DNA of 64,000 nt, from positions 36,469 through 100,468 of IMG/VR virus record IMGVR_UViG_3300021400_000468. One strand, written 5' to 3'. Under the pieces are notes generated by a model. It saw only the letters and a program-made list of their open reading frames with translations, did not search any database and was not told the origin of the DNA. This stretch comes from a virus. Lineage: Duplodnaviria > Caudoviricetes. A program made the position numbers and the translations under genes. Positions 19,495 to 37,234 of the stretch are shown here, piece after piece (positions within the stretch are counted from its first letter, which is position 1; the number at the start of each line of letters is the position of its first letter).

Positions 19495-19926
19495 TTACTC
19501 GCCCTCTTCGGTGAGATCCGCTTCACCGGTGGACAGTTCCCACTCAAGGTCGGGAGCCTGACGCCCGAACTGCCGAGGCGCGGAACGCACCACCCAGCAA
19601 GCGTCGGAGGCAAAAACCATGCCGCCCTTGAGATCCTTAATCAGGATCGGGAACAGTGCATTGCCGTTTTCCACATCTTCATCGAACTTATCCTGAAGGA
19701 ACTTCGCGGACGCGGATGATCTCAGCAGAACGATCCGGATGTTGTAGGTTCTGTCAGGGCTGATAGAACGGACGATTTCGCCGTCACAGCCTACCTTCTT
19801 GGTGATGCCGTCCCCGTTCGGCTCAATCTGGATGAAGCTGTCCTCTGCGTACCCTTCCACGATATGGGAACCGAGGGAACAGGTCACTTCACGGGGGTTA
19901 TAGGTTTTGATTCTTCCCGCTGCCAT
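19495..19926 (-). CDS. Tail tube protein (DUF3277-like)
   Basis: TYNP.EV, GCDGE and FPILIKD motifs; follows sheath. Confidence 0.8.
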   Translation of the reverse strand: MAAGRIKTYNPREVTCSLGSHIVEGYAEDSFIQIEPNGDGITKKVGCDGEIVRSISPDRTYNIRIVLLRSSASAKFLQDKFDEDVENGNALFPILIKDLKGGMVFASDACWVVRSAPRQFGRQAPDLEWELSTGEADLTEEGE

Positions 19927-19944
19927 CTATTTCACCATCCTTTC

Positions 19945-21084
19945 TTACAGCTCATAGGTCAGGCTGCCCTTGATTTCGGCGAAATGAATCGCACCGGCGA
20001 GTCTCGCCTTGAACTTGCAGCCACGGAGAATACGGGACGCTTTTTCGGAAGCGGTGAGGCTGGAGGCCAGCGGAACGGAGGTGGCAAAGCCGGGAATACG
20101 GACGCCATCTTCGTCAAACTCATCCCGAGCGATGCCGCCCATGACCTGACCGCGCTTCAAGGAGGCGATCATGGCATTGTGGATCAGGGCGATGCCCTCG
20201 TCGGTATACGGGATCTTGGTGTTCATGATGAAAAGATTCACGACCCGGACCTGCATATCGTTCTTCAGCCAGTCACGGAACCGGATCACATCGGCCCACT
20301 CACCGGAGCGGGTCTTGCCGTTCATGGTGATATTGCGGTTGCCGACCGTAATGAAGTAGCACAGGCAGTCATCCACAAGGCTTGCGATCTGCGTGGAGGT
20401 GAGCTGGGAAGGATAGACGGACGTGAGCTGCTTGAACGCGGTGGTTTCGGAACCGGGCTGATAGTTCAGCCACTTGGCAACGAACGCCACGTTGATGTAC
20501 TTGTTGGCGCGAGGCATATCCGCGACAACCTGAGTACCGGTTTCGGGGCCGAACACACCAACGGTACGGTTGTAGACAGCACCGGTAGAGGCGGTCTTGC
20601 TGTTGCGGAGATATTCAGTCTCGGTATAGACGAACATCTTGTCAAACGCCTCGATATACTCGGCGATTTCCTCATACCAGCTCGAATCAACACCCGCGGT
20701 GCAGAGGACGTACCACGTCACGTTGTCGATGGATCGTTCGATGGCCTTCAGCGGGGACACAACAGTCTGCACATTGGAGCCTTCGCCCTTCTGAACCGTA
20801 TCGGTGCTCTTGATGGGCGCGATGTAAATGACGGTCGGGCGCGGGGTCTGGGAGAACGCTACCTGCGCGGCTTCCGCGATGGGATCATGCGCTTCGAGGC
20901 TCCACCCGGTATCCAGCACCTCATCCAGAGACCTGTATGCGCCGAACTCAGGCGGCTCTTCATCAGGCGTCACGGACGGCGCGGGGCCGACGATCAACAA
21001 GTTATCGAAACTGGTATCGTCCACAATCGGGGACACGATATCAATATCGACTGTTGCGATCAAATCGTAATTTTTCTTTGCCAT
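19945..21084 (-). CDS. Tail sheath protein (DUF3383-like)
   Basis: [22 protein letters not shown] and LAGAIH motifs. Confidence 0.85.
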
Positions 21085-21141
21085 TCGGATTTTTCCTCCG
21101 TTTCTATGATTTATGGGAATTGCGCGGTCCGGTTAGAGGAA

Positions 21142-22098
21142 TCAAGGCTTCCTGCCACGGCGGATGATGAGGGTCTTGTTTTCATCGTCCGTTTCAACGA
21201 TCAGATCATCGTCGGTGACATAGGTGACGGAATGATTCGGGTCGAAGTCTGCCGTAACGGGATAGAAGCCCAGCTTTTCGAGATAGTCCAGAAGCCGCTT
21301 CACCGTCTCGTCAAGGTGTCCTCTGACCGCAAAGCCCCTGGACACATATTCGCCCTTGGGCGTATACGGGACAAACTCCACCTCGGCTTCGGTGAAGTAT
21401 CCGGTATTGAACATGGCGAGGATTTCCGTACCGCCGCCGCTGTCGGTAGGCGTGAATTGAGGATCTACAGTTGCCCGCTTCTCCGCATCCTCTTCCGGAC
21501 TTCCGAAACCGCCGGTCGTACTGGTCTTCCGGACAGGCGCTCCGGGGGCAAATATCTCTTCATCCCCGTTGAACTTACCGGTCGGATAAATGATGCTGTT
21601 CTCATCCACAACCCCGGCGTGTTCGATGGACAGGGAGACATAGGACAGCCGAAGCCTCATTCTGGCGCGGTATTCGTAAGAGGTTTCACCGATAATCCCG
21701 GTCAGGTCCTCCACATCTCCATCCCGCATAAACGAAATGGAATGGATGTCGCACCATTCCACGGCATATTCAGATTGGAGATAATCTTCAAAGGCACAGA
21801 GGTCATCGACGGCGGTATTCTCCCGGGCCACCACGCCGAGCTGCGGATCGGTAACAGGAGCACCGTGGGTAAACAGGTCGATATCGACCTGAACGCTGGA
21901 CGCATACTGGCCCACATTCACCCCGTCAAAGACCTTGATGTTCGGTCTTGTGGGACGGACTACCGCTCCGAAGGTAAGCAGAACCAGAGGCAGCTCCGGT
22001 TTCGGAATTCGGCTCTGTCTTGCAAGCAGGACGTTCGCTTCTCCGAAATACTCCTTGGTCAGTTGCCGGAACAGTTCACGGGCTTCCTTTAATCTCAT
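21142..22098 (-). CDS. Tail terminator/neck protein
   Basis: Directly before sheath; 318 aa. Confidence 0.6.
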   Translation of the reverse strand: MRLKEARELFRQLTKEYFGEANVLLARQSRIPKPELPLVLLTFGAVVRPTRPNIKVFDGVNVGQYASSVQVDIDLFTHGAPVTDPQLGVVARENTAVDDLCAFEDYLQSEYAVEWCDIHSISFMRDGDVEDLTGIIGETSYEYRARMRLRLSYVSLSIEHAGVVDENSIIYPTGKFNGDEEIFAPGAPVRKTSTTGGFGSPEEDAEKRATVDPQFTPTDSGGGTEILAMFNTGYFTEAEVEFVPYTPKGEYVSRGFAVRGHLDETVKRLLDYLEKLGFYPVTADFDPNHSVTYVTDDDLIVETDDENKTLIIRRGRKP

Positions 22099-23836: not shown

Positions 23837-24871
23837 TCAGGAAATACCGACGGCGATCATAGCGGACAGCGGGTAGTACACGATGACACCGGCGGTCCGG
23901 GATTCGCAGGGGATGACGGTTTCCAGATTCTTGGGCTGAGCGGAATACTGGCGGTAGGCCATGGGATTCTCAAGCGCGAGCTTGTCTTCCTTGTTGGTGA
24001 ACAGGAAAGCGACGCCCTGACCGTTGGAAGCGGCGGCAAAGGGGTTGGTCTCGACGGAATCGGCATTCAGCTCAGCGGTGGAAACGATATCCTTGATGTA
24101 GGGGCTGTTATCCAGCAGGAACTTCAGGATAGTCAGGCCGGTGTCCGGGATTCTCTTCGTGGCGATGTACATATACACGTCTGCGGGGATGCAGAGGGTA
24201 TCGGGACGCTCCACGTTCTTCGTGGTCACGGCGACGGTCTTCGCCATTCCGTTGATGTCATCGAGGATCTCATCCGGGGTCTTCTCAAACCACTTGGTCT
24301 TGCCGGAAGCGTTGGCAGGGATGGTGTACAGAGGGATGGACTGACCGGTGGACAGAACACCCATCAGGCCGGAGGTATCGTCGCCTCTCCACGCGATAGT
24401 GTTGACGGTCTTGTCGTTGGAGTACCGGGCGGCTTCGGCCTTTCTGGAATCGAGGTTCTTGTTCGCCAGACGGGAAGCTCTCATCTCCTGAACGGAATAG
24501 CCGTAGGACACGCCGATAGACTTGATCTTCGCCGTGGAGGGCTTGCCATCCACATCGGCTCTCGGCAGGTCATCGGAGTAGTTGTCGATGATCTTAGCGA
24601 GACCCTTCTTATCGTAGGAGTAGTAGGTGACGGTCTCAGCGCCCTCATCCACATCATGGGTGATCGGGAAGATCTGGAGGGCGGTCAGTTCGGGATATTC
24701 AACGTCATAGGATTTGGACTTGACGTAATCCAGTTCTCTGGCGAAGAATACGGACGCTTCCTCGGCGCTGTCGAAACGAGCCTGCTTGGAAGCCTGAATC
24801 GCTTCGGCGATGCCGGAATCCTTGATCGCACGAGCGTCCTTTCTGCTGTAGGACTTATGCTTGTTTGCCAT
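23837..24871 (-). CDS. Major capsid protein (DUF2184-like)
   Basis: FFARELDYV, DDLPRADV, YGYSVQE and RTAGVIVYYP motifs. Confidence 0.9.
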   Translation of the reverse strand: MANKHKSYSRKDARAIKDSGIAEAIQASKQARFDSAEEASVFFARELDYVKSKSYDVEYPELTALQIFPITHDVDEGAETVTYYSYDKKGLAKIIDNYSDDLPRADVDGKPSTAKIKSIGVSYGYSVQEMRASRLANKNLDSRKAEAARYSNDKTVNTIAWRGDDTSGLMGVLSTGQSIPLYTIPANASGKTKWFEKTPDEILDDINGMAKTVAVTTKNVERPDTLCIPADVYMYIATKRIPDTGLTILKFLLDNSPYIKDIVSTAELNADSVETNPFAAASNGQGVAFLFTNKEDKLALENPMAYRQYSAQPKNLETVIPCESRTAGVIVYYPLSAMIAVGIS

Positions 24872-24901
24872 TCGTTTTATCCTCCTTGTTGATTCTCAGA
24901 C

Positions 24902-25387
24902 TCAGTGGTTGTAGAGTTCCACGGGAGCGATGCCGTTGGCGGCTTCACCGAGGAAACGACCATTCACGGCGGTAGCGTTTTCGCTTCCAGATTCACCGGC
25001 GGTATTGGTGAAGAAACCGGTCTCGTCGCCGGACTTCACGACATACAGCGGGTCATTATAGGCGACCTCAACGCCGGTGGCGACTCTGACATAGACGCGG
25101 CCCCAGCGGACAACGCCCACGCCAGCGCCCTTGTGCATCCGGATATGACCGTCAAGGTCATATTCGGTGGTGCGGTTGTTGTTCACAACGCCCTCGAAGG
25201 TGCCGGAGCCGGTGAACTTCTTGATCTGCTTACCGGCAACAGTACCGGACATAGCCGCAAGACCCGGCTTCAGGACGCCGGTATCCTCTTCGTTGATGAA
25301 GCTGTCGATAGCGTGGGGGGTGAGGTCTACGAGACCACCCGCGATGCCGCGACCGGTGGTCCAGTTATAAGCGGTCTGAACTGCCAT
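24902..25387 (-). CDS. Capsid cement/decoration protein
   Basis: 161 aa, Gly-rich, GRVYV motif; directly before capsid gene. Confidence 0.7.
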   Translation of the reverse strand: MAVQTAYNWTTGRGIAGGLVDLTPHAIDSFINEEDTGVLKPGLAAMSGTVAGKQIKKFTGSGTFEGVVNNNRTTEYDLDGHIRMHKGAGVGVVRWGRVYVRVATGVEVAYNDPLYVVKSGDETGFFTNTAGESGSENATAVNGRFLGEAANGIAPVELYNH

Positions 25388-25401
25388 TGATTCTTTCCTC
25401 C

Positions 25402-27210
25402 TTAGTTCTTTTTGCCGTTGTTACGACGGCTGTTTTCCTTCTTGATCATGCCGTCGCGGTGTGCTTCCGCAGAGTCGCGATCCGTTCTGCTGTCGGCGTT
25501 GTAAGCCTTCTGGAACATCTGGCGTCTCTGATAGGCCGTATCCTTCTTGGTGGCCTTCTTCACGTCATCGACGCAGAGGCGGTACAGAGCATCGATGTAG
25601 GCCTCGGACTTACCGTCAAGACGGATGCCGGGGCGGACCTTCTTGATGATCTTCTTCTTCGCCGTGGGAATGGGCTGATACTCCAGACCATCAAGGTTCA
25701 GACGGGAACCGATCTTGGCGATTTCCATCCGCTTGCGAAGCTGCTTCTGGACGATGGCATCGATGGAATCCTGATTCATGCGGGAAGGGATGCAGTCATC
25801 GTCACCATCTTCCTCGAATTCCTCTTCTTCCTCGTCATCTTCATCCTCGGCGATTTCCTCATCATCGCCGGACTTGGGCGGGAAGGGAGCGGGAGCATCG
25901 GTATCCTCGTCTTCGTCCTCTTCGAACTCCTCTTCTTCCTCATCCTCATCTTCAACGATGTCTTCGTCTTCGTCATCGTCGGAATCGCAGTTTGCCTTAT
26001 CCTCGCAATCCGCTCCGTCCTCGTTGGTTTCTTCGGGATCATCCTCTTCATCGGAATCGGCCTGAGCTTCGGCACGGTCTTCATCTGTGAGGTTGGGCTT
26101 GGCGGCGGCTTCCTCCTTGCTGTTGGCAGGGATGGGATCGGTATCCGCATCGGTATTTCCGGAACCACCCTTACCACCAAAATCTCTCTCGGCAAGCAGG
26201 GTGTCGATGAGGTCATACAGGAAATCGAGGTCCTCGTCCTGTTCGGCAATCTGCTCCATTGCGCCGTTCATGTCTTCAGGATCACCCTTCTCATCTCTGA
26301 GATCACGGCGGTTCTTCACGGCCTGAAGTTTCTCATCCACGGGTTTGGACTGATCGGGAAGCGCAGGAGCTTCCTGCTCGGGCTTGGGGAGGCTATCCTT
26401 CTTAACGGGAACGGCTTTAGGATTTTCGACAGCCGGTTCCTTCGTGGGAACTTCCTCCTGAGGCTTAACGACTTCCTGGTCGGCCAGCTTAGCGGCCTTG
26501 GCCTCGGAATCATCCTCATCGGTCTTTGCAGCCGCACGTCTCGCCTTGTAATCCGCAATGGCTTTCTGAAGCTCTTCCTGACTCAGAATGCTGTCATTGT
26601 GAATCGCAGACTTCTTAGCGGCTTTTCTCTTTGCCATAGTCTTGTGTCCTCCTGTCATAATGGTTTTATCGGCCCGGCTGTCGATATTGAGCCGCGCCTG
26701 ATCACCTGCCCTTGCTTCCCGTACAACGGCAAGATGATTCACTCTAATATTGCGCTGAATGGCATCATACTTCTGCCCATTCCACACACCCGGCGTTTCC
26801 TCAAGGTCGAGGTTATAGCCGAGGGATAGTTCCTTATAACGGCACTCTTTCAGCGCATCGGTATCATGGATGACGATTTCTGCCCGAACATCGTCTCCAT
26901 CCTTTTCCCCTTCGGTCAGGATCGTGCCGATCTGATTGTCGTGGACGTTATCCGTATTGATCAGGCCAGCATCATGCGTAATGACGATTGGCTTGCCTTT
27001 ATACGACGCCAGACTTTCTGGATCAAACACATCCTCCGGAAGCCGAAGCTCCCGTCTTGTTGTACCGTCGGAGTTCTTATATTCAAAAATACCGGTGGAG
27101 GTCAGGATGGGCTTATCCTTCAAATACCCCTCTTCGGTATAATTGGCGCGAAATGCAGGAAAGCTGTCCAATCTGGTAACATGAACCAGCTTCATAGGTT
27201 TTTCACTCAT
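25402..27210 (-). CDS. Prohead protease-scaffold fusion (DUF2213-like) with long acidic region
   Basis: TEEGYL, GKPIVITH, ELSLGY and NHLAVVREARAG motifs; Asp/Glu-rich C-terminal half. Confidence 0.85.
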   Translation of the reverse strand: MSEKPMKLVHVTRLDSFPAFRANYTEEGYLKDKPILTSTGIFEYKNSDGTTRRELRLPEDVFDPESLASYKGKPIVITHDAGLINTDNVHDNQIGTILTEGEKDGDDVRAEIVIHDTDALKECRYKELSLGYNLDLEETPGVWNGQKYDAIQRNIRVNHLAVVREARAGDQARLNIDSRADKTIMTGGHKTMAKRKAAKKSAIHNDSILSQEELQKAIADYKARRAAAKTDEDDSEAKAAKLADQEVVKPQEEVPTKEPAVENPKAVPVKKDSLPKPEQEAPALPDQSKPVDEKLQAVKNRRDLRDEKGDPEDMNGAMEQIAEQDEDLDFLYDLIDTLLAERDFGGKGGSGNTDADTDPIPANSKEEAAAKPNLTDEDRAEAQADSDEEDDPEETNEDGADCEDKANCDSDDDEDEDIVEDEDEEEEEFEEDEDEDTDAPAPFPPKSGDDEEIAEDEDDEEEEEFEEDGDDDCIPSRMNQDSIDAIVQKQLRKRMEIAKIGSRLNLDGLEYQPIPTAKKKIIKKVRPGIRLDGKSEAYIDALYRLCVDDVKKATKKDTAYQRRQMFQKAYNADSRTDRDSAEAHRDGMIKKENSRRNNGKKN

Positions 27211-27497
27211 GTTCCCATCTCTCCCAACTCATCTTCGTATTCATCGGTCGGAGTATAATCTGACTGATCCGTTTCTTCGGGGCGTCCGTCCTTCTTCCCT
27301 ACCGCACCGGTAAGGAGAATGGTCAACTCCTGAAGCTGTCCGAGAACGGATACCTCCAAGTCTCCGAAATGATCCGCCATCTCATCCTCTCCATTATCCT
27401 GAAGAGAACGAATACTGTTCTCATACTCCACAATCATGGCGGAACACTGACCAATTTTTTTGCAGATCTCTTCAATAGCGTTCGGTTTGGTTTCCAC
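27207..27497 (-). CDS. Hypothetical protein
   Basis: 96-aa ORF overlapping protease start (ATGA). Confidence 0.6.
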   Translation of the reverse strand: METKPNAIEEICKKIGQCSAMIVEYENSIRSLQDNGEDEMADHFGDLEVSVLGQLQELTILLTGAVGKKDGRPEETDQSDYTPTDEYEDELGEMGT

Positions 27498-27519
27498 GGT
27501 GCATCACCTCCCGTTGGCT

Positions 27520-27687
27520 TTATTTTCCATACTTGTTGACGTGAAATGTCTTGCGCCAATCTCTCATCTTGTCACGCTCGACAATATCAGGGGTACAGTG
27601 CTTCCTGCACCTTGGGTTGTCCAGCATGCAGATGCAGACTGTTTCGCCCTTTTCAAAACGAACAAGAACACGGATATACTCTTTCAT
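27520..27687 (-). CDS. Small Cys-containing hypothetical protein
   Basis: MKEYIRV... ORF tiling the operon. Confidence 0.45.
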   Translation of the reverse strand: MKEYIRVLVRFEKGETVCICMLDNPRCRKHCTPDIVERDKMRDWRKTFHVNKYGK

Positions 27688-27697
27688 GGTTTTTTCT

Positions 27698-27874
27698 TTA
27701 CGGTTGTTCCGTGATTTCACAGCAAATCATGGGGGTTCTGATTTCTGCTTCAATGATCATAGCCCATTCTTCTTTATAGGACTGAAGTTCTGCTTCCGTA
27801 CAGACGGAATATACAATACGCTTGCGGTAACCGGACAAATCGCGGAAAACAAGGCGGTAACGCTTCTTTGCCAT
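27698..27874 (-). CDS. Small hypothetical protein
   Basis: GGGAGG RBS before MAKKRYR... Confidence 0.5.
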   Translation of the reverse strand: MAKKRYRLVFRDLSGYRKRIVYSVCTEAELQSYKEEWAMIIEAEIRTPMICCEITEQP

Positions 27875-27909
27875 GGCAAGCCTCCCGGTTTTTGAAAGCA
27901 AAACGGCAT

Positions 27910-27933
27910 AAAAAAAGCGCACTTCCGTGCGCT
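27910..27933 (-). terminator. Intrinsic terminator closing the GNAT-like cassette
   Basis: agcgcac-ggaa-gtgcgct followed by a T run on the minus strand. Confidence 0.7.
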
Positions 27934-28027
27934 CTATATTCTGTTGTGGTCTGGATCATTCCCTACCGGAGCCGATAATCAACAACTTTATTATTCATCC
28001 TCCCTCCAAGCACTCCACACAGAGAAA

Positions 28028-28318
28028 TCAATAGCTCATCATCATGTTATAGCCCACGGCGGAAGCCTCGGCTTTGCAAGCAGCCTCAAACGTCATGTGT
28101 CCACACTTCCGCTGATAACTTTCCTCATCCTTCCACAGGGCGGCAAAATCATCATAGGCGATATTGACATATTCTTCCGCTTCTTCGGTTTTGAGGTACG
28201 CCTTGGCTCGCTCTTCCGTACCCTCCCATGCAGACCTCAGAAACGCATCTTCACAAAGCTCTCTGAACTCTTCACGGGTAATGGGCAGTTCACCGCGACT
28301 GTTTCCTTTTCCGCTCAT
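28028..28318 (-). CDS. Small acidic protein, putative immunity/antitoxin
   Basis: 96 aa, ATGA-coupled to the upstream effector gene. Confidence 0.55.
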   Translation of the reverse strand: MSGKGNSRGELPITREEFRELCEDAFLRSAWEGTEERAKAYLKTEEAEEYVNIAYDDFAALWKDEESYQRKCGHMTFEAACKAEASAVGYNMMMSY

Positions 28319-29169
28319 CTTCCTACCTCTTTGTCTCTTTCCGAATAAGCCGTGTCATAATCAGCGCTGTAAGGAATATTCTTCCGAACATCAGCCAAGG
28401 TCTGGTTCTTCACATTCCCGATCCCGACATATTTGTAGAAGATGATATCTTCTCTGCTATCCCGGTCGGGATTCCATCCCTGTGCTTTCGCACTGTCCTC
28501 ATATGCGGAATCCCATTGACACCGGCTCACCGCTTCAAAACCATTCCGGGCATAAAACTGGTGGTTGCCCTCATAGCTGTCCAACTTGGTTCCGCCGTTC
28601 TTAACAGCGTAGGCCAGAATATCATGCCCTCTGAGCATCCCGCCCTTGCCGTCTCCGGGGCCGACACAGACTGCAACTATATCCCCATTGTCAATGGCAA
28701 TGGTGCTTCCCCCATCCGTAATGTGCATCCGGGCATTGGGATGCCAGTCAGCCATCTCCTGACTGCTCATGGAGCTTACGCGCCACGCATTTTCCGGATT
28801 CTGGGATTTCTTCGCTGCCGCCAGTTTCTTGGTGAAGGTCTTTCTGCTTCCTGCGGTATTGAACTTCACCTTGTTCGATCCGGGATTCCCACTTTCGGAG
28901 TAGAAATCAGACGGGCTTTTGCCGGTTTTCTCTTTCAAGGCATCCCACGCATCCTGAGGGGTGGAGCCTTTCGGAAGGTTGATTCCAAACTTCTTACACA
29001 GACCGAACGCCAACCGCTGACTGGCGTCATACCGGGTCGCTCCATCCATATTATACACCTTATTACGGCTTTTGTCAAACCCGTCCGACAACTTTTTCTC
29101 ATCGGCGTTTAGCCGGGAAACGAGACGTTGATACCGGCGATTTCGATACTCCAGAATTTTGCTGTTCAA
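28315..29169 (-). CDS. Head-associated protein with C-terminal GNAT-like domain
   Basis: G..IL..AVKNGGTKLD.Y....FYARNGF resembles GNAT motifs A/B; N-terminal KILEY..RR..RL. Confidence 0.55.
   Translation of the reverse strand: MNSKILEYRNRRYQRLVSRLNADEKKLSDGFDKSRNKVYNMDGATRYDASQRLAFGLCKKFGINLPKGSTPQDAWDALKEKTGKSPSDFYSESGNPGSNKVKFNTAGSRKTFTKKLAAAKKSQNPENAWRVSSMSSQEMADWHPNARMHITDGGSTIAIDNGDIVAVCVGPGDGKGGMLRGHDILAYAVKNGGTKLDSYEGNHQFYARNGFEAVSRCQWDSAYEDSAKAQGWNPDRDSREDIIFYKYVGIGNVKNQTLADVRKNIPYSADYDTAYSERDKEVGR
29050..29078 (-). promoter_or_regulatory. Intragenic sigmaA consensus promoter
   Basis: TTGACA-aaagccgtaataaggtg(17)-TATAAT. Confidence 0.8.
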
Positions 29170-30127
29170 TGATCTTACCCCTCAACTTTTCCTCTGAACC
29201 TTCACTTACAGGCAGGTTCACCGTATCCTGATCAAATACAGGGATCGCCATGCAGCGACAACAAAAATCCTCGCCGGGATGACAAAACCGCCCGGTATAA
29301 ACCTTCCCTCTGGATTTGGTCATATACCAGCTCGGAGGAGGATCGTCCCATGAAAAGATCTTACCGTTATATTCACGGTGACTTTCTCTGACCCGGCTAT
29401 CATTTCTGGACTTCCATCTATAATGGGTACATCCGGCGTCGGTCTGCTGCTTCCGTGTAATCTGGGAGCAAAGAGTTCCCATCTGGTCTATTGCAAGGGA
29501 CTTGGCTTTTCGCTTCGACACTCCGAAGGACCTGACAATTTCATTCCGGATCTTGGTAATGCCCCAGCCCTCATAATAACCGTTCTGTATGATCTGGCGC
29601 ATGGTGGCAAGTGATTCCTCGGGTATGGATCGAACATAGCCAACATTCTCTTCGGTCCAACGGTCGATCAAATCCCCCCATGTTCCCTTGTTGTAGTAAT
29701 GACCATCAAGATCAACGCCGAAGGTTTTTTTGATGAGGTTTTTCCACTGTCGGACGTTGGTACCGTTTGCCCGCTTAGCCACCTTGCGGATGAAGACATC
29801 GGTCTTGAAATCATCCAGTTTTTCAGCAAGCTCTCTTTCCATCTTCCTGATGGTCTTGCTGAAATGTTCCGTAAAGCTGAGAATCCGGGCGTCCTCACGG
29901 ACCTCGGAGGAATCAACCCGGCTTTCACGAAAAATCTGAATGATTTCAGGAAGATGTTCCTTTATGATATCACGGGCCATATTCGCATGGCGCATAGCCA
30001 CGGAAGCATACTCCCTTTCTGCGGATTCAGGATACAAAAGAGTCCCTTGAACTCTTTTACCTCTTGTGAGGCCGGAGGAGCCTCTGTGGGCGTTTTTCCA
30101 AACCGGAACAGGTATTTTATCAGCCAT
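29099..30127 (-). CDS. MuF/SPP1 gp7-like minor head protein (no toxin extension)
   Basis: YRW....DSRVR.SH....GKIFSWDDPP...HPGEDFCCRC.A.P. Confidence 0.85.
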   Translation of the reverse strand: MADKIPVPVWKNAHRGSSGLTRGKRVQGTLLYPESAEREYASVAMRHANMARDIIKEHLPEIIQIFRESRVDSSEVREDARILSFTEHFSKTIRKMERELAEKLDDFKTDVFIRKVAKRANGTNVRQWKNLIKKTFGVDLDGHYYNKGTWGDLIDRWTEENVGYVRSIPEESLATMRQIIQNGYYEGWGITKIRNEIVRSFGVSKRKAKSLAIDQMGTLCSQITRKQQTDAGCTHYRWKSRNDSRVRESHREYNGKIFSWDDPPPSWYMTKSRGKVYTGRFCHPGEDFCCRCMAIPVFDQDTVNLPVSEGSEEKLRGKIIEQQNSGVSKSPVSTSRFPAKRR

Positions 30128-30219
30128 GCACAAAACCCTCCGAAAACATCCTTCTCGCTCCTCTCTAATACATCTGGGAATAAACGCCGTCCCTCAACCC
30201 TTATCCGAAACTATCGGAA

Positions 30220-30256
30220 CGAAAAAAAGGACACTTTCAACGGCGTCCTTTTTTCG
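30220..30256. terminator. Intrinsic terminator closing the zeta-toxin cassette
   Basis: aaaaaaggac...gtcctttttt inverted repeat. Confidence 0.7.
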
Positions 30257-30264
30257 TCTCTGAT

Positions 30265-30519
30265 TCAGGTATCGGATTCCATCATCTCGAAGGTAACGGG
30301 AAAGAGAATCTTTCCGTACTGACTGATCATCTTCTCTTCTTCCGCTTTCTTCTGCTTCATGAGGCGGTCATAGAACCACTGTTCAACCTCGCCCCATTCT
30401 CCGCCGGATTCGCTGGGATCATCCCCTTCATTTACGCAGCGGATAATGCGGTTGTGCCACTTGGCATCCTTCTCGCAGAACTCACTCCAGATCTTGGGAT
30501 CGACTTTTTCGTTTTCCAT
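30265..30519 (-). CDS. Small acidic protein, putative antitoxin/immunity
   Basis: AAGGAGG RBS at the zeta stop codon; 84 aa. Confidence 0.55.
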   Translation of the reverse strand: MENEKVDPKIWSEFCEKDAKWHNRIIRCVNEGDDPSESGGEWGEVEQWFYDRLMKQKKAEEEKMISQYGKILFPVTFEMMESDT

Positions 30520-30529
30520 GCTTTCCTCC

Positions 30530-31921
30530 TTAGTCATGGATTTCAACCTCACCCTTGTCGTTAATCACATAACGACCGGGTGTACGGCTCTTGTCAAGAA
30601 ATGCTCTGAGCTTATCCTTATCCACGGCGGTAATGGGCTTTCCTCCACCACCGGTGGCAATCAGAACAGGCTCGGATCCCATCGGGCCGCTGTTGTCATA
30701 CAGGCTGAACTCATCAAAATACTGAGCACACGCAACCGATGTATCGGTAACGGCTCCATGAATCTTTCTGACTTCATCCTCGGCAACAAGGCGGGGCGGA
30801 ACCTTACTTCTACCGGCTTCGTATTCAGCCTTGGCATGTTCATACCGACCCTGATTTCTCTTGAGAGCTTCTTCAATATCAAGGGTCATGTAGGAACCCA
30901 CCGCTCTGCACCCTGCGGCATGAGCCTGATCAATCTTCTTCTTCAGGCTCTTTACGCTTCCGTCGCCAGTTCCATCATAAACCGCATTCAAACCGGAATC
31001 CAGCGTTGCGGAATACAGGGACTTGGCAAGACCAGAGCTTTCCTCGTGATAATACCCGGCAGCTTTGGTGGACTTGGAAGCCATATCCTCATAACCGGGA
31101 AGCGCGGCTTTCATCTCATCCGGGTCAATTCCCACGCAGGAATTTTCGGGAAGAGCTTTTTCAGCCATCTTTCTCAGCCTTGACTTACCGGAAGCAGGTC
31201 CGCCGCCGAGAATCGTAACGACCCTCTGTCCTTCGGGCTGAGGAATCTTCCCTTCCAACTTATCACGGATAATCTCTCTGTGAACCTCCTGACGCTCTCT
31301 CGTGAAGTTTCCGTTCTTATCCAGATACTTCTTCGCGGAGTTGGGCTTGGTCTCGGTTCGGCAGTCATCGGCATTCACCGGCTTGCTCGAAATGCTCTCC
31401 CTACTAAGAGGAGTCCCGACCTTAACCGGAGAGGTCTTTCCCTGCTTCGCCCCGGAAGCGGTACTTCCAACACCAGCGGAAGCCCCGGAAGAACCGGAAG
31501 ATCCGGAAGAACTCTTCTTACTCTCAGCGTTCTTCTTGGCCTCGGCCTTGACCTCCTTGATATTCTTTCCGGTCATGGCATTAGGACCGGCGACCACTTC
31601 ACCCTCTTCATTCAAGGCAAAGTGCTTGCCGTTCTTCGTGGTTCTCCACTGGACGTCTTCGCCGTTTACCTGATCGGCATCAAACCGGCTTCCCGCCCCG
31701 CTATTATTATACCACATTTCGCCACGTTTGTCAATAGGAAGTTTATTGAAATCCCTATTTATTTCCGGGAGATTACGTTTGGCAAGCCGCTTGTTTCTGC
31801 GGTTATAAAACGCATCCACACTATCGGTGCGGACTTCCCCATCTCCAGACAGCCCGCGCTTGGCAAGTCTGGCATCCCGACGCTTCTTGTATTCGAGGAT
31901 TTTCTTGCGGTCATTCTGCAT
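30530..31921 (-). CDS. Head-associated protein with C-terminal zeta-toxin-like P-loop kinase
   Basis: LGGGPASGKS, IDPDEMK, HEESS, DGTG and LYDNSG motifs. Confidence 0.8.
   Translation of the reverse strand: MQNDRKKILEYKKRRDARLAKRGLSGDGEVRTDSVDAFYNRRNKRLAKRNLPEINRDFNKLPIDKRGEMWYNNSGAGSRFDADQVNGEDVQWRTTKNGKHFALNEEGEVVAGPNAMTGKNIKEVKAEAKKNAESKKSSSGSSGSSGASAGVGSTASGAKQGKTSPVKVGTPLSRESISSKPVNADDCRTETKPNSAKKYLDKNGNFTRERQEVHREIIRDKLEGKIPQPEGQRVVTILGGGPASGKSRLRKMAEKALPENSCVGIDPDEMKAALPGYEDMASKSTKAAGYYHEESSGLAKSLYSATLDSGLNAVYDGTGDGSVKSLKKKIDQAHAAGCRAVGSYMTLDIEEALKRNQGRYEHAKAEYEAGRSKVPPRLVAEDEVRKIHGAVTDTSVACAQYFDEFSLYDNSGPMGSEPVLIATGGGGKPITAVDKDKLRAFLDKSRTPGRYVINDKGEVEIHD
31706..31734 (-). promoter_or_regulatory. 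Intragenic sigmaA consensus promoter (extended -10)
   Basis: TTGACA-aacgtggcgaaatgtgg(17)-TATAAT. Confidence 0.8.
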
Positions 31922-31984
31922 GGCTACACCCCATTCTCAAGGCCCCAAAACAGGCTTGTTTTTTCCTTCCATTTTAGATTAAAA

Positions 31985-32180
31985 TATACAGTACAGTAAC
32001 AGATACAGTACAGTACAGATACAGTAAAAAAGGGATTTTTTCGATACCGTATCCATACCCTATCGACACGGTATCCTTGATGTACCTCAAACCCAACAGG
32101 GACAACGGACAGAGACACTTTGATAAAAATAGTTTATTCATTAAAGCTGTTTTAGGATACGGTATCCATACCCTATCGAA
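31985..32180. repeat. Iteron-like 11-bp repeats plus TACAG(T/A) short repeats (origin-like)
   Basis: Five GATA(C/G)(C/G)GT(A/G)T units at 32043-32075 and 32156-32179; TACAG array at 31987-32025 beside AT-rich DNA. Confidence 0.6.
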
Positions 32181-32292
32181 AAACAGCCCAAATTCACTCT
32201 CTCTTTGTAGAAAAATCGATGTAGTTAAAGATTGTTCACAGATTATTCATCCAGATCAAGAGTAGTTTAATGTTAAACTATTCGGATTGGAC

Positions 32293-32325
32293 ATGAGAAA
32301 AGGGCGATTTCTCGCCCCATCTCAT
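32293..32325 (-). terminator. Intrinsic terminator closing the portal-toxin cassette
   Basis: gggcga-gaaa-tcgccc-tttt on the minus strand. Confidence 0.65.
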
Positions 32326-32340
32326 CTTCATTTTTGACCA

Positions 32341-32598
32341 TTACTCGGAATCGGAGTCACCTTCATCCGGGATGATCTCAATGTCCTTGATCTCATCTTC
32401 CCAGAGGACAAGCCCCATATCATCATCGTCAAGAGAAACCATGATCGAAGAAAACGCACCGTCCTCACGGTCACAGTCGCCCCTGCCCTCATACTCATCC
32501 ACAAAACACTTGATTGTCTTTCCGTCTGTGGTCTTGATCACAGCATGATGATCAGTGGCATGCCACATGAGATTGTCGATTTCCTTGCCCTTATCCAT
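32341..32598 (-). CDS. Small acidic protein, putative immunity protein
   Basis: 85 aa, overlaps the portal-fusion stop by 8 nt. Confidence 0.6.
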   Translation of the reverse strand: MDKGKEIDNLMWHATDHHAVIKTTDGKTIKCFVDEYEGRGDCDREDGAFSSIMVSLDDDDMGLVLWEDEIKDIEIIPDEGDSDSE

Positions 32599-35377
32599 TC
32601 TTACCCTCTGCTTTCGCTTTTTCTTCTTTCGCCTTTTCGTCCAACGCTTCCTTCAACCTCTGTTTATAATCCTTCGGTTTGGCGGGGACGAAATGACAGC
32701 CATCTTTTGCATAATGCACCGTCATACGATCCGTTTTAAGCCAGCAATCATGATCCCGATCATAGAAACGTCCAACAATCTTGCCAGCCGAGATGGTTTC
32801 CCGATAACAGGTATTACTGTCCGGCTTTCCATATGAAACACCATTTCCGTGATTTTGACTCAATATACTCTGAAGCTCTTTATCACTTACCGTGGTGTAG
32901 CTCGGAGGATTCCCATCTTTAATGCGCTGGTTATATTCGGCAGAGTCTTTCCTGTGAGGATTCTGCTTCTTCTTGTTCAGCCTATCGCTCACTATGCCAG
33001 ACGCAATTACGTAATCAAGCTGCTTGGACGGAATCTTTACGGGAGGATCATCCTGATATGATGGCGAACCTTTATTTGAAGATCCTCCTACCGATCCAGG
33101 TCTACCTCCATGTCCGAAGTTCCCGCTTCCGGGGCCTCCATCCATACTTATTATACCACCTTCTTCGTCAATTGTCAATATCTCAGACAACTTTTCAAAC
33201 AAAAGGTTCATGGATATTTTGAAGGGGCCAAACAGGTTATGACTGAATATATCGGGGATGGTACGGAACCGCTGATTATCCATTTCAAAATCGGCGGTAA
33301 TCATCTCACCCTCATACTCAGTGCAGAAGAACACAGCGGGAATAAGACCAGTATCCTCTTCAAAATCACCAAGACCGATCAACTTCAGGTTCAAGGGGGT
33401 AATGCCAAACTCTTCCTGCGTTTCCCGGACCGCAGCATCAGTTAGAGATTCACCGGGTTCCACATGACCACCGGGACCACAGAGCTGACCGAAGTGATCG
33501 ATATCCTTTCTGGTTCCGGTCAGGATCTTCATCTGCTTAAGATTCAGGACGAACACACCGACCGAACGGATACGTCGGAGAATGTCATCGTCCAACCACT
33601 CCTCGCTGGTCACATCTTCGACGGGATGGACAAGATCGGATTCGACAGCAGGAGAATCATCCTGTGATCCAGAGGCATCGTCTTCATGATCAGGTTCTTC
33701 TTCCTGATCAACCTCTTCTTGTACAGCCTCTTCTACCTGCTCAACCTCTTCCTGATCCTGCGGGAGTTTGGTAGCTTCGGGGGCGGATTCGGGGGCATTG
33801 CCGTATTCGGCATAATCATCGAAGTCGCCCTGTTCCATGAGATGACCGTCACCCTGAGCGGGTTGAGGAGCGACGCCCATCTGCGGAGCGGCACCTCCCA
33901 TGGCTTCCATACCGCCCATGCCACCTTCACCACCCTCTGCTCCCTGCTGACCCTGCGGTGCGCTTTCCATAAGCTCTTCTTCAGACATATCGTCGAGCAT
34001 GGATTCCACATCAAGATCATCGGGTTTGCCGAGGCCAACACGGACTTCTTTAGGATCGAGGACTTCCATACCGACATAGGTATTGGCAATGTTGGCACGG
34101 GTAAGCTCGTTCTGGAGCTTGGAGGATTCAAGCTGAACCTCTTCCGTCTCGGACATGGACCAAAGCGGATTGAAGGAAACTTTGAACTCCGGAACCTTCT
34201 CCACTTCCCCGGTATGCAGACCCGCCGCAAAAATCACGGAAAGCAGATACCGAAGGTTGGAGCGGAGCATCCTCTTCTGGATCCGTTCCACATAGTTATA
34301 GTAGTTCTCAAAGTCACTTTCACCGGTGGCATTCATACCGGCGGGAGAACGACCAAACAGAATGGTTTGGGGAATTGAGGTAATGGCCGAAAGCCAATTG
34401 CAAGAGGCATCGATTACTTCTTGCACTCCGGTGAATCCAAACGTCTGGAAGCTGTAATCCTCACCCTCTGCATCAATCGTAATGGAATTCAGAAGTCCGC
34501 GCGCAGTATCAATGGCCTCCAGTCTGCGGAGGACCTTATCCTCACCCTCTTCGGTTGCCAACAGGGCGGCGAGGTCCTTCATCCGATATACGGGTTGGAC
34601 GGATTTGGAAAGCATCTTCGGGGCGCTCTCATGGGCTACCTCGGCATTGCGGATGGCGCGGTTAATCCGGACGTATTCCGGAATGCCCCAAAGCCTGTAA
34701 TTCTCATAGCTGGTGTTCAGCGGAAGCATTCCGTTTCTGAACGCCAGCACACGGCTGTCATGAACCCAGAAATGCCCCCCGGTAATGGGATTGTTAATTT
34801 CATACCATTCCGGCGTACCGAGTCTGCTTCCGCGAGTTTGAAACGGATCGTTGGGTTCATGGTCGTATATCGAGGCATAATCCGGATTGATACAGGAGCG
34901 GTCAAAAACAAGGATATCATCAATGGACCGGATCCTCTTCCAGTCCAGCGGCTCTTCAAGGCCATGACCATCGTTGATGAGCATAATGGCGAGGGAACCG
35001 CCGAAAAGCCGCGCCCACTTGATTCCGGTCATTGCCACTTCTTCCCAATCAAGCTCGTCAAGGGCAGATTGGTAGAATTCAATCAGGTCCTTATCTTCAA
35101 CATCATCCAGTTCAAAACCATGCTTGACGGCTTCTTCAGCGGGAGTGTCTATGATCTTGGCAAACAGGCCGTTGTTCTCGTAGAACATCTCCAGAAGCAT
35201 ATCATCCACTACCGGTTCAGGCTGATAACGGTAGGCTTCGGTATCGTCCTTTTTGGTTCCGTACCGATTGACCATATTGACATAGCCGTCAAACCGATGA
35301 AGGGGAATCGCATTCCCGGTCTGCTTGCGCAGGACGTTTTCATATCTGCGCATATCGAATGCCATATCTCTATCCAC
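32591..35377 (-). CDS. Portal protein (DUF1073-like) fused to a Nudix hydrolase and a C-terminal Ntox50-like toxin domain
   Basis: KIIDTPAEE, WARLFGG, IPQTILFGRSPAGMNATGESD; Nudix box GGHVEPGESLTDAAVRETQEEFG; KQNPH...GKIVG...TVHYAKDGCHFVP. Confidence 0.85.
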   Translation of the reverse strand: MDRDMAFDMRRYENVLRKQTGNAIPLHRFDGYVNMVNRYGTKKDDTEAYRYQPEPVVDDMLLEMFYENNGLFAKIIDTPAEEAVKHGFELDDVEDKDLIEFYQSALDELDWEEVAMTGIKWARLFGGSLAIMLINDGHGLEEPLDWKRIRSIDDILVFDRSCINPDYASIYDHEPNDPFQTRGSRLGTPEWYEINNPITGGHFWVHDSRVLAFRNGMLPLNTSYENYRLWGIPEYVRINRAIRNAEVAHESAPKMLSKSVQPVYRMKDLAALLATEEGEDKVLRRLEAIDTARGLLNSITIDAEGEDYSFQTFGFTGVQEVIDASCNWLSAITSIPQTILFGRSPAGMNATGESDFENYYNYVERIQKRMLRSNLRYLLSVIFAAGLHTGEVEKVPEFKVSFNPLWSMSETEEVQLESSKLQNELTRANIANTYVGMEVLDPKEVRVGLGKPDDLDVESMLDDMSEEELMESAPQGQQGAEGGEGGMGGMEAMGGAAPQMGVAPQPAQGDGHLMEQGDFDDYAEYGNAPESAPEATKLPQDQEEVEQVEEAVQEEVDQEEEPDHEDDASGSQDDSPAVESDLVHPVEDVTSEEWLDDDILRRIRSVGVFVLNLKQMKILTGTRKDIDHFGQLCGPGGHVEPGESLTDAAVRETQEEFGITPLNLKLIGLGDFEEDTGLIPAVFFCTEYEGEMITADFEMDNQRFRTIPDIFSHNLFGPFKISMNLLFEKLSEILTIDEEGGIISMDGGPGSGNFGHGGRPGSVGGSSNKGSPSYQDDPPVKIPSKQLDYVIASGIVSDRLNKKKQNPHRKDSAEYNQRIKDGNPPSYTTVSDKELQSILSQNHGNGVSYGKPDSNTCYRETISAGKIVGRFYDRDHDCWLKTDRMTVHYAKDGCHFVPAKPKDYKQRLKEALDEKAKEEKAKAEGKNG
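33150..33178 (-). promoter_or_regulatory. Intragenic sigmaA consensus promoter (extended -10)
   Basis: TTGACA-attgacgaagaaggtgg(17)-TATAAT. Confidence 0.8.
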
Positions 35378-35395: not shown

Positions 35396-36805
35396 TTACA
35401 GAAGATTATTGATGTTAAACTGCGCCCTCAATTCTACTTCCGCAAAGCCATTCGCGGAGGCATCCACCATATCCTTGAACTTCCATTCCGGGAAGTTCTC
35501 AAGCTGCTCCAGATATGCCTCATTCCAGTCTGCATGAAGAATATCGAAATTTCCGGCTTGCCACTGAGCTGCCATAGGCTCTGCCCGGGACTCCTTACTT
35601 CCGGATTCAGAAACCGCCGTAACATCAAAACCGGACAACAGCTTTATGTATGACTGCGCCTGTTCCTTTCCGGCCTGACCGGGGTCCTGCGGCAACCTGA
35701 TCCGAACACGTTTGAACTCGGCCCTGTCCTTCTGTGCCGTGAGACGGATTGTCTGGCGCACATCGGAAGCAGCCATCTGTTTATTGATAACGTCCGCTAC
35801 AAGGTAACGTCCGTTTTTTCTCTTTCCTATCAACACCCCGGCTGTATACGCCGCGTCCCCGTTCTCATCCTTTTCGGTGGCGGCAAGGTCCCAGCATCTC
35901 ACCCACTGGATCACATCATTCGGAATGACCTCAAGAATATTGCCAAGCTGTGTGCGCTTGAAATACAGACCGGCACTCGGCTTGATCTTCCAGTTTCCGT
36001 AAAGAAGACGCTCCCTTTCCACAATGGACAGGGATTTCAGGTTTGCCAGATAGCTTGGGTTGACCTTCAGGAGTTCCTTATTGTCATAGATTGAAGAGGC
36101 AATAAAGGTAACGGATTTCGGCTCTTCCCTCTCTTCCGTGGTTTTGAGGTCGAACTGCTTCCACAACTCCGTTCGGCTGTCGGCCCAATACAGTTGCTCG
36201 TCACGACGGATGAACCACCTCTTGACGCCGCTTCTTTCCTGAATGGCATAACCGGAATCCTGATCAATCCACCACGAAATAAACTCCGCGACCCATGAAT
36301 TGGCGTCCGGGTTGCAAGTGGCGCGAACAAAGGGCTTTACGCCGCAGGTACTACGGTTACGGGACAGCATGTAGAAAAACTGACGCTCAGAAAAATGGGT
36401 AAGCTCATCCCAACAGATTTCCGCTATCTGCGAACCCTGCCAATTATGGACGGCATCATCTCTGTCCAAGTGGGCGAACTTTACTCTTCCGAGAATTTCC
36501 CCCTCCGGACTTCTGAACATCCACGACCCATCGCCGCCTCTCTTCTCGGCTCCGGGAATACTGTGGTATATCTTGTCGGCTTCATCCCAAAGACCGCCTT
36601 GGCTGAAGATCTGATTGTAGTTCTTACGAAAGATGGTACAGGTAAACCCCGGAACGTTTTTGTACCGCAGGGGAGTAAGCAAAAGGCCGTAGCTCTTCCC
36701 TCCACCGGCGGAACCGCCATAAATGCAGATGTCAGCGCTTGTGGCAAGAAATCGTTCCTGCGGTCCGGGCTGAGGCTTGATAATCATTGTTTCTTTTCCA
36801 GCCAT
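35396..36805 (-). CDS. terL: Terminase large subunit
   Basis: PQPGPQ, YGGSAGGGKS Walker A, WDELTHF Walker B, WDLA and DMVDA nuclease motifs. Confidence 0.92.
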   Translation of the reverse strand: MAGKETMIIKPQPGPQERFLATSADICIYGGSAGGGKSYGLLLTPLRYKNVPGFTCTIFRKNYNQIFSQGGLWDEADKIYHSIPGAEKRGGDGSWMFRSPEGEILGRVKFAHLDRDDAVHNWQGSQIAEICWDELTHFSERQFFYMLSRNRSTCGVKPFVRATCNPDANSWVAEFISWWIDQDSGYAIQERSGVKRWFIRRDEQLYWADSRTELWKQFDLKTTEEREEPKSVTFIASSIYDNKELLKVNPSYLANLKSLSIVERERLLYGNWKIKPSAGLYFKRTQLGNILEVIPNDVIQWVRCWDLAATEKDENGDAAYTAGVLIGKRKNGRYLVADVINKQMAASDVRQTIRLTAQKDRAEFKRVRIRLPQDPGQAGKEQAQSYIKLLSGFDVTAVSESGSKESRAEPMAAQWQAGNFDILHADWNEAYLEQLENFPEWKFKDMVDASANGFAEVELRAQFNINNLL

Positions 36806-37215
36806 TACGCATCTTCATTCTCCTCCGGATCTTCTTCTATCGCGGGCAGATAAATCATTACATCCGGGACGTTGGTAACATCCACCGAACTTTCTGGAGC
36901 ATTGATCTCCACAAGCGGTCTGTCGGTCTGTCCCAAGAACTGCTTACCGAGAAAAATAGCCATAGCCGCAGATTTTTCAGACAGCTTAAGCTGATTCCGG
37001 CGCAGTTTGATTTTCAGAGCCATGGATCCGTTTTGTCTGGAATACTCTTGAAAACTCATTCCGAACGTCCGCTTGCACCATCGGCTCAAGGTATCGCCAT
37101 TCGCAGGTTTCCCGAACTCATCCCGGAACCACCAGCAAATCTCCTCTGCGCTGCATCCGAGTCCTACGAGATCGATAAACTGCTTCTCATCAAATTCTTT
37201 CAATGGGCGGGCCAT
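36805..37215 (-). CDS. terS: Terminase small subunit
   Basis: N-terminal HTH, MAIFLGKQFLGQTD motif, abuts terL. Confidence 0.75.
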   Translation of the reverse strand: MARPLKEFDEKQFIDLVGLGCSAEEICWWFRDEFGKPANGDTLSRWCKRTFGMSFQEYSRQNGSMALKIKLRRNQLKLSEKSAAMAIFLGKQFLGQTDRPLVEINAPESSVDVTNVPDVMIYLPAIEEDPEENEDA

Positions 37216-37234
37216 TGAAGACACCCCCTCTGTT

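Follow-up and report, generated by a model that had tools for sequence, protein, structure and literature searches.

The head module of a tailed gut phage of about 100 kb lies in the final 64 kb of a virus record of 100,468 bp in IMG/VR (IMGVR_UViG_3300021400_000468; this 64,000-nucleotide stretch as a whole is referred to here as the window). A short motif built around an aspartate recurs in the proteins of this module, among them a protease of the DUF2213 family fused to a scaffold, the major capsid protein and two stand-alone toxin-like enzymes, and in the capsid protein it is homologous to an experimentally mapped cleavage site. On balance, our findings suggest that this phage makes toxin-like enzymes as precursors, which the DUF2213 protease would trim in the prohead and which would be released together with the DNA. 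Because the motif aligned in the capsid protein is the site that is cut in phage TLS, the enzymes are probably loaded as precursors and trimmed inside the capsid. The proteins and sites that bear on this argument are the following, given in window positions, with a slash for a known or predicted cut and P3, P2, P1 and P1′ for the three residues before it and the one after it:

23837-24871, minus strand: major capsid protein, 344 amino acids (PF09950, E 1.4e-63; phrog_264)
24764-24778, minus strand: predicted capsid maturation site R32-F33-D34/S35, placed by alignment to the T1 and TLS sites
25402-27210, minus strand: protease-scaffold (DUF2213), 602 amino acids (PF09979, phrog_530)
26515-26586, minus strand: scaffold helix with a Y-K-x-R-R pattern (amino acids 209-232), conserved in 6/6 relatives
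26674-26688, minus strand: N-I-D/S (amino acids 175-178) at the end of the DUF2213 domain, placed by alignments
28315-29169, minus strand: GNAT-fold protein, 284 amino acids, TTG start, with a putative pro-region; assigned by AlphaFold2 (AF2), Foldseek and VIA, no Pfam match
29020-29169, minus strand: putative pro-region of the 284-amino acid protein, with a basic helix (amino acids 1-24), then N-M-D/G (40-43) and R-Y-D/A (46-49)
29099-30133, minus strand: MuF / SPP1 gp7-type minor head protein, 344 amino acids (PF04233, TIGR01641)
30530-31921, minus strand: Zeta-toxin-family kinase, 463 amino acids, with a putative N-terminal pro-region (PF06414, E 6.5e-23, amino acids 227-397)
31673-31909, minus strand: putative Zeta pro-region, with basic helix 1 (amino acids 5-24), R-T-D/S (31-34), helix 2 (36-52) and R-F-D/A (79-82)
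32591-35377, minus strand: portal-NUDIX-Ntox50 fusion, 928 amino acids (PF06381, PF00293, PF15542)
33080-33148, minus strand: S-M-D/GG junction and glycine-rich motif (amino acids 744-766) between NUDIX and Ntox50
35282-35377, minus strand: the N-terminal 27 amino acids of the portal followed by R-F-D/G-Y (amino acids 28-32), from alignment

The capsid site anchors the proposal in experiment. R32-F33-D34-S35 aligns with K24-Q25-D26-A27 of the T1 capsid protein (PDB 9KZJ) and with K25-N26-D27-A28 of the TLS protein. The atomic model of the T1 capsid, obtained by cryo-electron microscopy, starts at residue A27 (PMC11945409), and Edman sequencing of the TLS virion capsid protein gave A-S-D-M-G-I-W (PMC11447400). 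The latter sequence begins at residue 28 of the deposited protein, directly after K25-N26-D27, so that the homologous capsid protein is cut right behind the aligned Asp. The authors of the TLS study infer the loss of 45 residues (PMC11447400); a start at residue 28 of the deposited protein (locus L014, 6486-7460) means that 27 residues are removed, after K-N-D. Among 74 capsid relatives from IMG/VR (38-71% identity), P1 is D in all 74, P1′ is S, A or G in 73, and P3 is R, H or N in 73, and the site keeps a near-fixed distance of 5-7 residues ahead of a conserved anchor. Relatives of the capsid protein in the PDB are those of T1, Pam3 and XM1. PB1, which has the same protease family and gene order, carries A-M-D64/S65 in its capsid protein, and this fits the first visible residue of the E217 homologue, which is modelled from residue 66 (PMC10329688). 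In PB1 (locus L087, 5172-8366), the capsid and scaffold proteins both carry A-[MQ]-D/[SA], with no basic residue at P3. From this alignment it is very likely that the capsid protein of the window is cut after D34 and that its mature form begins at S35. The first-pass annotation of this DNA had proposed cleavage after Asp, and at the capsid the proposal coincides with the mature N-terminus of TLS and the first modelled residue of T1.

The protease-scaffold gene sits between the MuF gene and the cement and capsid genes. Its product matches PF09979 over amino acids 24-174 (E 2.4e-33; 115.9 bits, cut-off 22) and phrog_530, 'head maturation protease' (E 9e-73), and continues in a long C-terminal scaffold-like extension. 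H79, S129 and H159 are invariant in eight DUF2213 homologues. All five relatives compared share the sites at amino acids 13, 46, 175, 479 and 530 as well as an H/R-x-D-S/G site at amino acid 204, which gives about six conserved [RNH]-x-D/[SG] sites in total. Two of these mark borders: site 175 is the exact end of the DUF2213 domain, where T1 and TLS carry N-L-D-A and N-L-D-S, respectively, and site 479 follows immediately on an acidic tract of 124 amino acids (355-478) with a net charge of -60. This tract (25777-26148, minus strand) is about twice as long as in related phages. A fusion of protease and scaffold would be expected to have its scaffold part cut in many places, and it is likely that the Asp rule governs the scaffold as well.

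The first-pass annotation had noticed a recurrent motif of the type [R/N]-x-D-[S/A/G] near domain boundaries of head proteins and had suggested comparing its frequency in head and non-head genes. All of the strings that it quoted are found on the minus strand, at amino acids 32 of the capsid protein, 13, 175, 479 and 530 of the protease, 72 and 79 of MuF, 40 and 46 of the 284-amino acid protein, 31 and 79 of the Zeta kinase, and 28 and 744 of the portal, the last of which (S-M-D-G) departs from the pattern in having neither R nor N at P3. We ran the comparison with expectations obtained by shuffling each protein. The 13 proteins of the head module (4106 amino acids) contain 29 [RN].D[SAG] sites against 7.7 expected, a number reached in 0 of 2000 shuffles; the 88 other minus-strand open reading frames of the same contig (19,563 amino acids) contain 22 against 25.1 expected. 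The motif is thus enriched in head proteins only. Requiring a hydrophobic residue at x leaves 11 sites in head proteins and 6 in the others. For D-[SAG] alone there is no enrichment (85 observed, 74 expected).

T1 served as a second, distantly related genome. The pattern as used above occurs 6 times in its head proteins (2.5 expected, P 0.03) and 14 times in the rest (16.3 expected). When K is allowed at P3, because the TLS capsid site requires it, the count rises to 20 in head proteins (4.5 expected) and to 27 in the rest (27.4 expected); 12 of the 20 head sites fall in the 370-amino acid protease-scaffold, and the TLS scaffold has 13 such sites in 369 amino acids. As the pattern had been chosen with the data in view, replication in other genomes outweighs these P-values.

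Both stand-alone enzymes carry the motif where a variable N-terminus gives way to a conserved core. The AF2 model of the 284-amino acid protein (46 sequences; mean predicted local distance difference test score, pLDDT, 86.7) has a helix at amino acids 2-28, then a disordered stretch, then a globular domain. In this model, pLDDT falls below 50 over amino acids 29-50, the linker that holds both N-M-D/G and R-Y-D/A. A Foldseek search with the model returned only GNAT proteins among its top 50 rows (best E 8e-3), and VIA gave a moderate Z of 8.8 to 6ao7 and 1yvk (root-mean-square deviation 3.0 over 131 aligned residues). Pfam matched no family, and the ESM Atlas offered unnamed viral clusters only; the earlier label 'GNAT-like' is upheld by the model at the level of the fold. 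We collected 52 homologues and compared 41 sequences with a conserved core, the window's own included. The residue before the core is D in 41/41, followed by A in 38 and S in 3; P3 is R in 23, N in 13, H in 2, K in 1 and A in 2 (R/N/H/K in 39/41), and P2 is variable. The regions before this boundary are hypervariable, 4-77 amino acids long and of several visibly different sequence types, with a basic helix of the window's kind in 15 of the 41. The predicted mature N-terminus is A49. A search for longer, fused forms of the protein found none, which is weak evidence.

The Zeta kinase is matched by PF06414 well above threshold (81.6 bits, cut-off 22.3) and has the Walker A motif G-G-G-P-A-S-G-K-S. 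Each half of its putative pro-region has a net charge of +5, and a regular expression for the helix, run over all six frames of the contig, matches only the N-termini of the Zeta kinase and the 284-amino acid protein. Zeta homologues (38-67% identity) keep the double basic helix in diverging flanks, with R-x-D at site 1 in 5/6 and [RN]-x-D/[AS] at site 2 in 5/5. A word-index search with the Zeta N-terminus returned three close relatives only. Hence the placement of the motif near domain boundaries, another point of the first-pass annotation, is borne out in the GNAT-fold and Zeta families, where it sits at the meeting of hypervariable N-terminal region and conserved core, and in the 284-amino acid protein it falls in the linker that the model predicts to be disordered. 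From these alignments we consider removal of the cargo pro-regions at the Asp sites fairly likely.

The portal carries two further candidate sites. R-x-D-G-Y, close to its N-terminus, is kept in 3/3 relatives and corresponds to K-H-D-G-Y in T1 and K-E-D-G-Y in TLS, which suggests that the portal may be cleaved there. In MuF, site 79 (R-E-D-A) is kept as R-x-D-D in 5/5 relatives and site 72 (R-V-D-S) is not kept. The second portal site, S-M-D/GG, opens a glycine-rich junction of 20 amino acids, GGxGSGNxGHxGRxGxxGGS, between the NUDIX (amino acids 602-699) and Ntox50 (800-898) domains that Pfam assigns behind the portal domain proper (63-422). The junction occurs once in the window's contig. An IMG/VR scan found 155 copies in 72 loci (L015-L086), with up to 12 per locus, both at the N-termini of stand-alone cargo and between the domains of portal and other polyproteins; a literature search with strings of the motif found nothing relevant. 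Most loci have D immediately before its GG; two have K, one phage has R, and three loci have L or A, preceded by R-x. Four of five D-type records contain a canonical DUF2213 (E about 1e-35), the fifth being a 38% fragment; K- and R-type records lack it, and records of the L/A type match it weakly, as a divergent form. One K-type phage has a protease of the HK97 type (S78) together with an HK97-type portal, and HK97 cleaves its capsid protein after Lys. The other, L034, yielded neither DUF2213 nor S78 nor ClpP, and its head open reading frames had no Pfam matches. From one phage to another, the P1 residue of the junction thus seems to change with the family of the protease, as would be expected of a processing site matched to the phage's own protease.

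Seven related IMG/VR loci (47-57% protease identity) encode stand-alone proteins in the head module whose N-termini consist of a similar basic helix, then F-[RN]-x-D-G, then D/GG and the glycine-rich motif. One of them contains an ADP-ribosyltransferase domain; Pfam matches nothing in the rest. In the same loci, a glutamine-deamidase protein has the D/GG junction behind a different N-terminus. The Zeta domain also occurs within phage polyproteins. Between the domains of other Zeta-containing polyproteins (P0061, P0062, P0079, P0087 and others) we noted a second junction motif, H-D-x-x-G-R-F-[AT]-S-x-x-G, which also opens some stand-alone homologues (e.g., P0054) and may play the part of the glycine-rich junction in a different group of phages.

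Nearly all genes of the virus record lie on the minus strand, and the order portal, MuF, protease, cement, capsid is common to this phage, T1, TLS, PB1 and the Faecalibacterium phage FP_Brigit, its nearest cultured relative (57.6% capsid identity). The remaining genes of the head module, the terminase genes lying just beyond the interval 23837-35377, are:

between the protease-scaffold and capsid genes, minus strand: cement protein, from head-module gene order
27207-27497, minus strand: very acidic open reading frame of 96 amino acids, immediately upstream of the protease-scaffold gene with a 4-nucleotide overlap
27520-27720, minus strand: Cys-rich open reading frame of 66 amino acids (C-x-C ... 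C-x-x-x-C)
28028-28318, minus strand: acidic open reading frame of 96 amino acids overlapping the end of the GNAT-fold gene, candidate immunity protein
30265-30552, minus strand: acidic open reading frame of 95 amino acids overlapping the end of the Zeta gene, isoelectric point 4.8, candidate immunity protein
32341-32598, minus strand: acidic open reading frame of 85 amino acids overlapping the end of the portal-NUDIX-Ntox50 gene, net charge -18, candidate immunity protein
35396-36805, minus strand: large terminase
36805-37224, minus strand: small terminase

The acidic open reading frames of 85, 95 and 96 amino acids that each overlap the stop of a toxin-like gene have isoelectric points of 4.1-4.8 and look like immunity or antitoxin partners. 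Pfam, PHROG and NCBIfam searches returned no family for them; NCBIfam gave no match for the protease, the 284-amino acid protein or the small open reading frames. The Cys-rich open reading frame is kept beside MuF in all related loci. The one at 27207-27497 has same-position counterparts in related loci, of which blastp finds only that of L005 (29% identity), and may be an assembly factor. The MuF open reading frame overruns the 284-amino acid gene by 71 nucleotides in another frame (29099-29169, minus strand), and its final 28 or so amino acids have no counterpart in relatives; the overrun resembles a scar left by insertion of a cargo cassette downstream of MuF. A programmed frameshift from MuF into the 284-amino acid frame was set aside: a Shine-Dalgarno-like G-A-G-G-G-G lies 8 nucleotides before the TTG start, and a 99%-identical homologue has ATG at the same codon. 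Elsewhere in this otherwise minus-strand genome, a plus-strand open reading frame of 742 amino acids (19864-22092) lies in a stretch of higher G+C (0.56).

These findings fit a mechanism in which the DUF2213 protease-scaffold would cut after Asp in [R/N/H/K]-x-D/[S/A/G]. It would remove a 34-amino acid N-terminal piece from the capsid protein and fragment the scaffold at about six conserved sites, with the portal N-terminus and MuF as probable further targets. The three toxin-like enzymes of the head module would be synthesized in precursor form, the Zeta-type kinase and the GNAT-fold protein each with a strongly basic N-terminal helix, a putatively disordered linker and the Asp motif, and the Ntox50 domain attached to the portal behind the glycine-rich S-M-D/GG junction. 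The basic pro-helix would bring its precursor into the assembling prohead, the protease would remove the tag and free the Ntox50 domain, the mature enzymes would stay in the head and leave with the DNA, and the small acidic open reading frame after each toxin gene would protect the producing cell. Whether the helix acts as a loading tag seems to us evenly balanced. For ejection of the cargo into the host, we see about an even chance.

How the helix might dock is a separate matter. The first-pass annotation had it mimic the scaffold, which does contain a conserved helix (K-A-I-A-D-Y-K-A-R-R at amino acids 216-225) that resembles the cargo helices by eye. We compared the two with small hidden Markov models in both directions. 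With the cargo-helix model, scaffolds were the best non-self matches at E 0.35-3, which is noise level; with the scaffold-helix model, the Zeta N-terminus was the second-best non-self match at E about 4. Given these values, we do not count the likeness as evidence, and docking by mimicry of the scaffold helix is unlikely. Electrostatic docking is a simpler physical idea, with pro-regions of +5 each facing a scaffold tract of -60, and adhesion of the pro-helix to the very acidic scaffold would be the most economical guess.

The proposed scheme resembles that of T4, whose internal proteins carry a short N-terminal capsid targeting sequence into the scaffolding core, lose this tag to the prohead protease and leave with the DNA (PMC3012670). 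As in T4, unrelated cargo would share an N-terminal tag (the Zeta kinase and GNAT-fold protein here, ADP-ribosyltransferase cargo in relatives), and the tag is followed by a prohead-protease consensus site (D at P1 in 41/41 of the GNAT-fold family). Unlike in T4, where the protease is gp21 and cuts after Glu, the protease belongs to the DUF2213 family and would cut after Asp; the putative tag is a basic helix of 20 amino acids, sometimes doubled, and the cargo is of the polymorphic-toxin type with immunity-like partners. What would be new here is a T4-like way of working in a different protease family with a different specificity. The T4 analogy of the first-pass annotation therefore holds as a way of working and fails as homology, as there is no sequence homology, and in general its observation is confirmed and its interpretation supported in part. 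The giant phages SPN3US and phiKZ, which differ in lineage and capsid size, have a prohead protease that is related to T4 gp21 and cuts after Glu. Many of their head-internal proteins are reported to be cut by it during head assembly (PMC7411985, PMC10052503).

T1 (gp50) and TLS (gp33) share with this phage the DUF2213 family, the order of head genes, a homologous capsid protein and the position of its cleavage; they differ in having K rather than R or N at P3 and no toxin cargo genes. The T1 and TLS capsid papers that we read give no general cleavage rule, and none is apparent from the titles and abstracts of publications that mention DUF2213. MuF toxins, as described by Jamet et al. (2017, PMC5576092), have toxin domains beside MuF, small candidate immunity open reading frames after them and a presumed delivery by the capsid. 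Here, too, toxins stand in the head module by MuF, and the small acidic open reading frame immediately after each toxin-like gene fits the immunity partners described there. In contrast, MuF of the window (344 amino acids) has no toxin domain, two of the toxins are separate proteins with a pro-helix, and the third is part of the portal polypeptide. Our word searches of PMC5576092 found neither 'cleav' nor 'linker' nor 'motif'. Polyvalent proteins (Iyer et al., 2017, PMC5512222) join portal or MuF to NUDIX, Zeta kinase or ADP-ribosyltransferase domains and are predicted to be packaged and injected. The single 928-amino acid open reading frame for portal, NUDIX and Ntox50 conforms to this type. 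Whereas processing of polyvalent proteins has been ascribed to zincin-like metallopeptidase domains within them (PMC5512222), there is no such domain here, and the junctions carry a prohead-protease site.

Several points weigh against the reading of the toxin-like enzymes as protease-trimmed precursors. Some concern the motif: 4 of the 29 head sites lie in terminase subunits, which would be unexpected substrates; several sites of the window are unconserved, with only about eight kept in all relatives (38-68% identity); P3 varies, being A in PB1 and S, E, T or V at many D/GG junctions; and K at P3 was admitted after T1 had been seen. The agreement between junction P1 and protease family comes from few records and small numbers. 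Others concern the cargo. Two members of the 284-amino acid family have pro-regions of only 4 amino acids, so that, unless their start codons have been assigned wrongly, the family can do without the helix, and the conserved R/N-x-D that opens the cargo cores might be no more than the beginning of the domain. We found no virion proteomic data for this phage or its close relatives. The proteolytic activity assigned to DUF2213 is itself deduced from annotation (PHROG, the T1 and TLS records), the invariant H, S and H, and the cleaved capsids of T1 and TLS. A profile of the DUF2213 domain found no protease among PDB sequences, matching only the 'scaffolding protein' gp24 of Pa193, and the Pa193 paper indeed calls this DUF2213 homologue a scaffolding protein. 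The AF2 model of the domain (8 sequences) reached a pLDDT of 49.8, which is unusable.

Three other explanations have to be weighed against these data. Motif enrichment might be a post-hoc or compositional artefact without function, given that the pattern was drawn up after the sequences were inspected, that some sites lie in terminase subunits or within folded domains, and that D-[SAG] alone shows no excess. Against it stand the lack of enrichment in the 88 non-head open reading frames, the recurrence of the enrichment in T1 and TLS, the match of the capsid site to an experimental N-terminus and the invariance of Asp in 74 capsids and 41 cargo homologues, and we regard it as extremely improbable. 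A different possibility accepts the Asp motif as a protease site of structural proteins and makes the toxin helix either a non-covalent adaptor to MuF or portal, as in 'split' MuF toxins, or a DNA-binding helix that travels with the genome. Other phages have these toxin domains covalently joined to their MuF or portal proteins (PMC5576092; PMC5512222). In this phage, the GNAT-fold gene directly follows MuF and overlaps it, and the portal itself bears cargo. Arg-rich helices are, moreover, common binders of nucleic acids. Nothing in these observations separates the possible binding partners; a helix that is cut off in the prohead before DNA entry is unlikely to ride on the DNA, and the several types of pro-region before the same boundary are easier to reconcile with a partner bound loosely by charge than with a specific interface on MuF. 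We therefore consider an adaptor or DNA-riding role unlikely.

The third explanation takes the Zeta, GNAT-fold and Ntox50 genes and their acidic partners as toxin-immunity or exclusion cassettes within the head operon, which would act in the producing cell or lysogen rather than as virion cargo, with R/N-x-D/A as a conserved domain start. Zeta and GNAT toxins are classical members of toxin-antitoxin systems, a small acidic open reading frame overlaps each toxin-like gene, and these genes form variable insertions between conserved head genes. Cassettes of this kind leave unexplained why the variable N-terminal regions always end in the motif of capsid cleavage, why portal and MuF polyproteins contain these domains as well, with a junction P1 that tracks the protease, and why one toxin is fused to the portal. 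We consider them improbable.

If the proposed processing is correct, it would supply a cleavage rule for a large and barely studied protease family common to T1-like coliphages, therapeutic Pseudomonas phages (PB1, E217, Pa193) and abundant gut phages, and mature capsid, scaffold and cargo proteins would become predictable from sequence. In its most general form, which we put forward tentatively and with more doubt than confidence, DUF2213 proteases would follow an Asp code, x-x-D/S/A/G, with P3 set by lineage (R/N in gut phages, K in T1-like and A in PB1-like phages); portable basic pro-helices would be loading tags, and a 20-amino acid junction with a P1 residue tuned to the resident protease would separate effector domains in portal, MuF and other polyproteins. 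Were this code to hold, virion proteomes and sets of injected effectors would be readable from sequence for thousands of phages. A short portable loading tag and a junction cassette might also be used for loading foreign proteins into capsids, as has been done with the T4 targeting sequence. Our findings further suggest that gut phages of Faecalibacterium-type hosts inject a Zeta kinase, a GNAT-fold protein, NUDIX and Ntox50, and their relatives ADP-ribosyltransferases; injected toxin-like enzymes of this kind may serve host take-over or counter-defence. For such phages, the scheme offers a mechanism of cargo entry and release other than covalent fusion to MuF or self-cleaving metallopeptidases.

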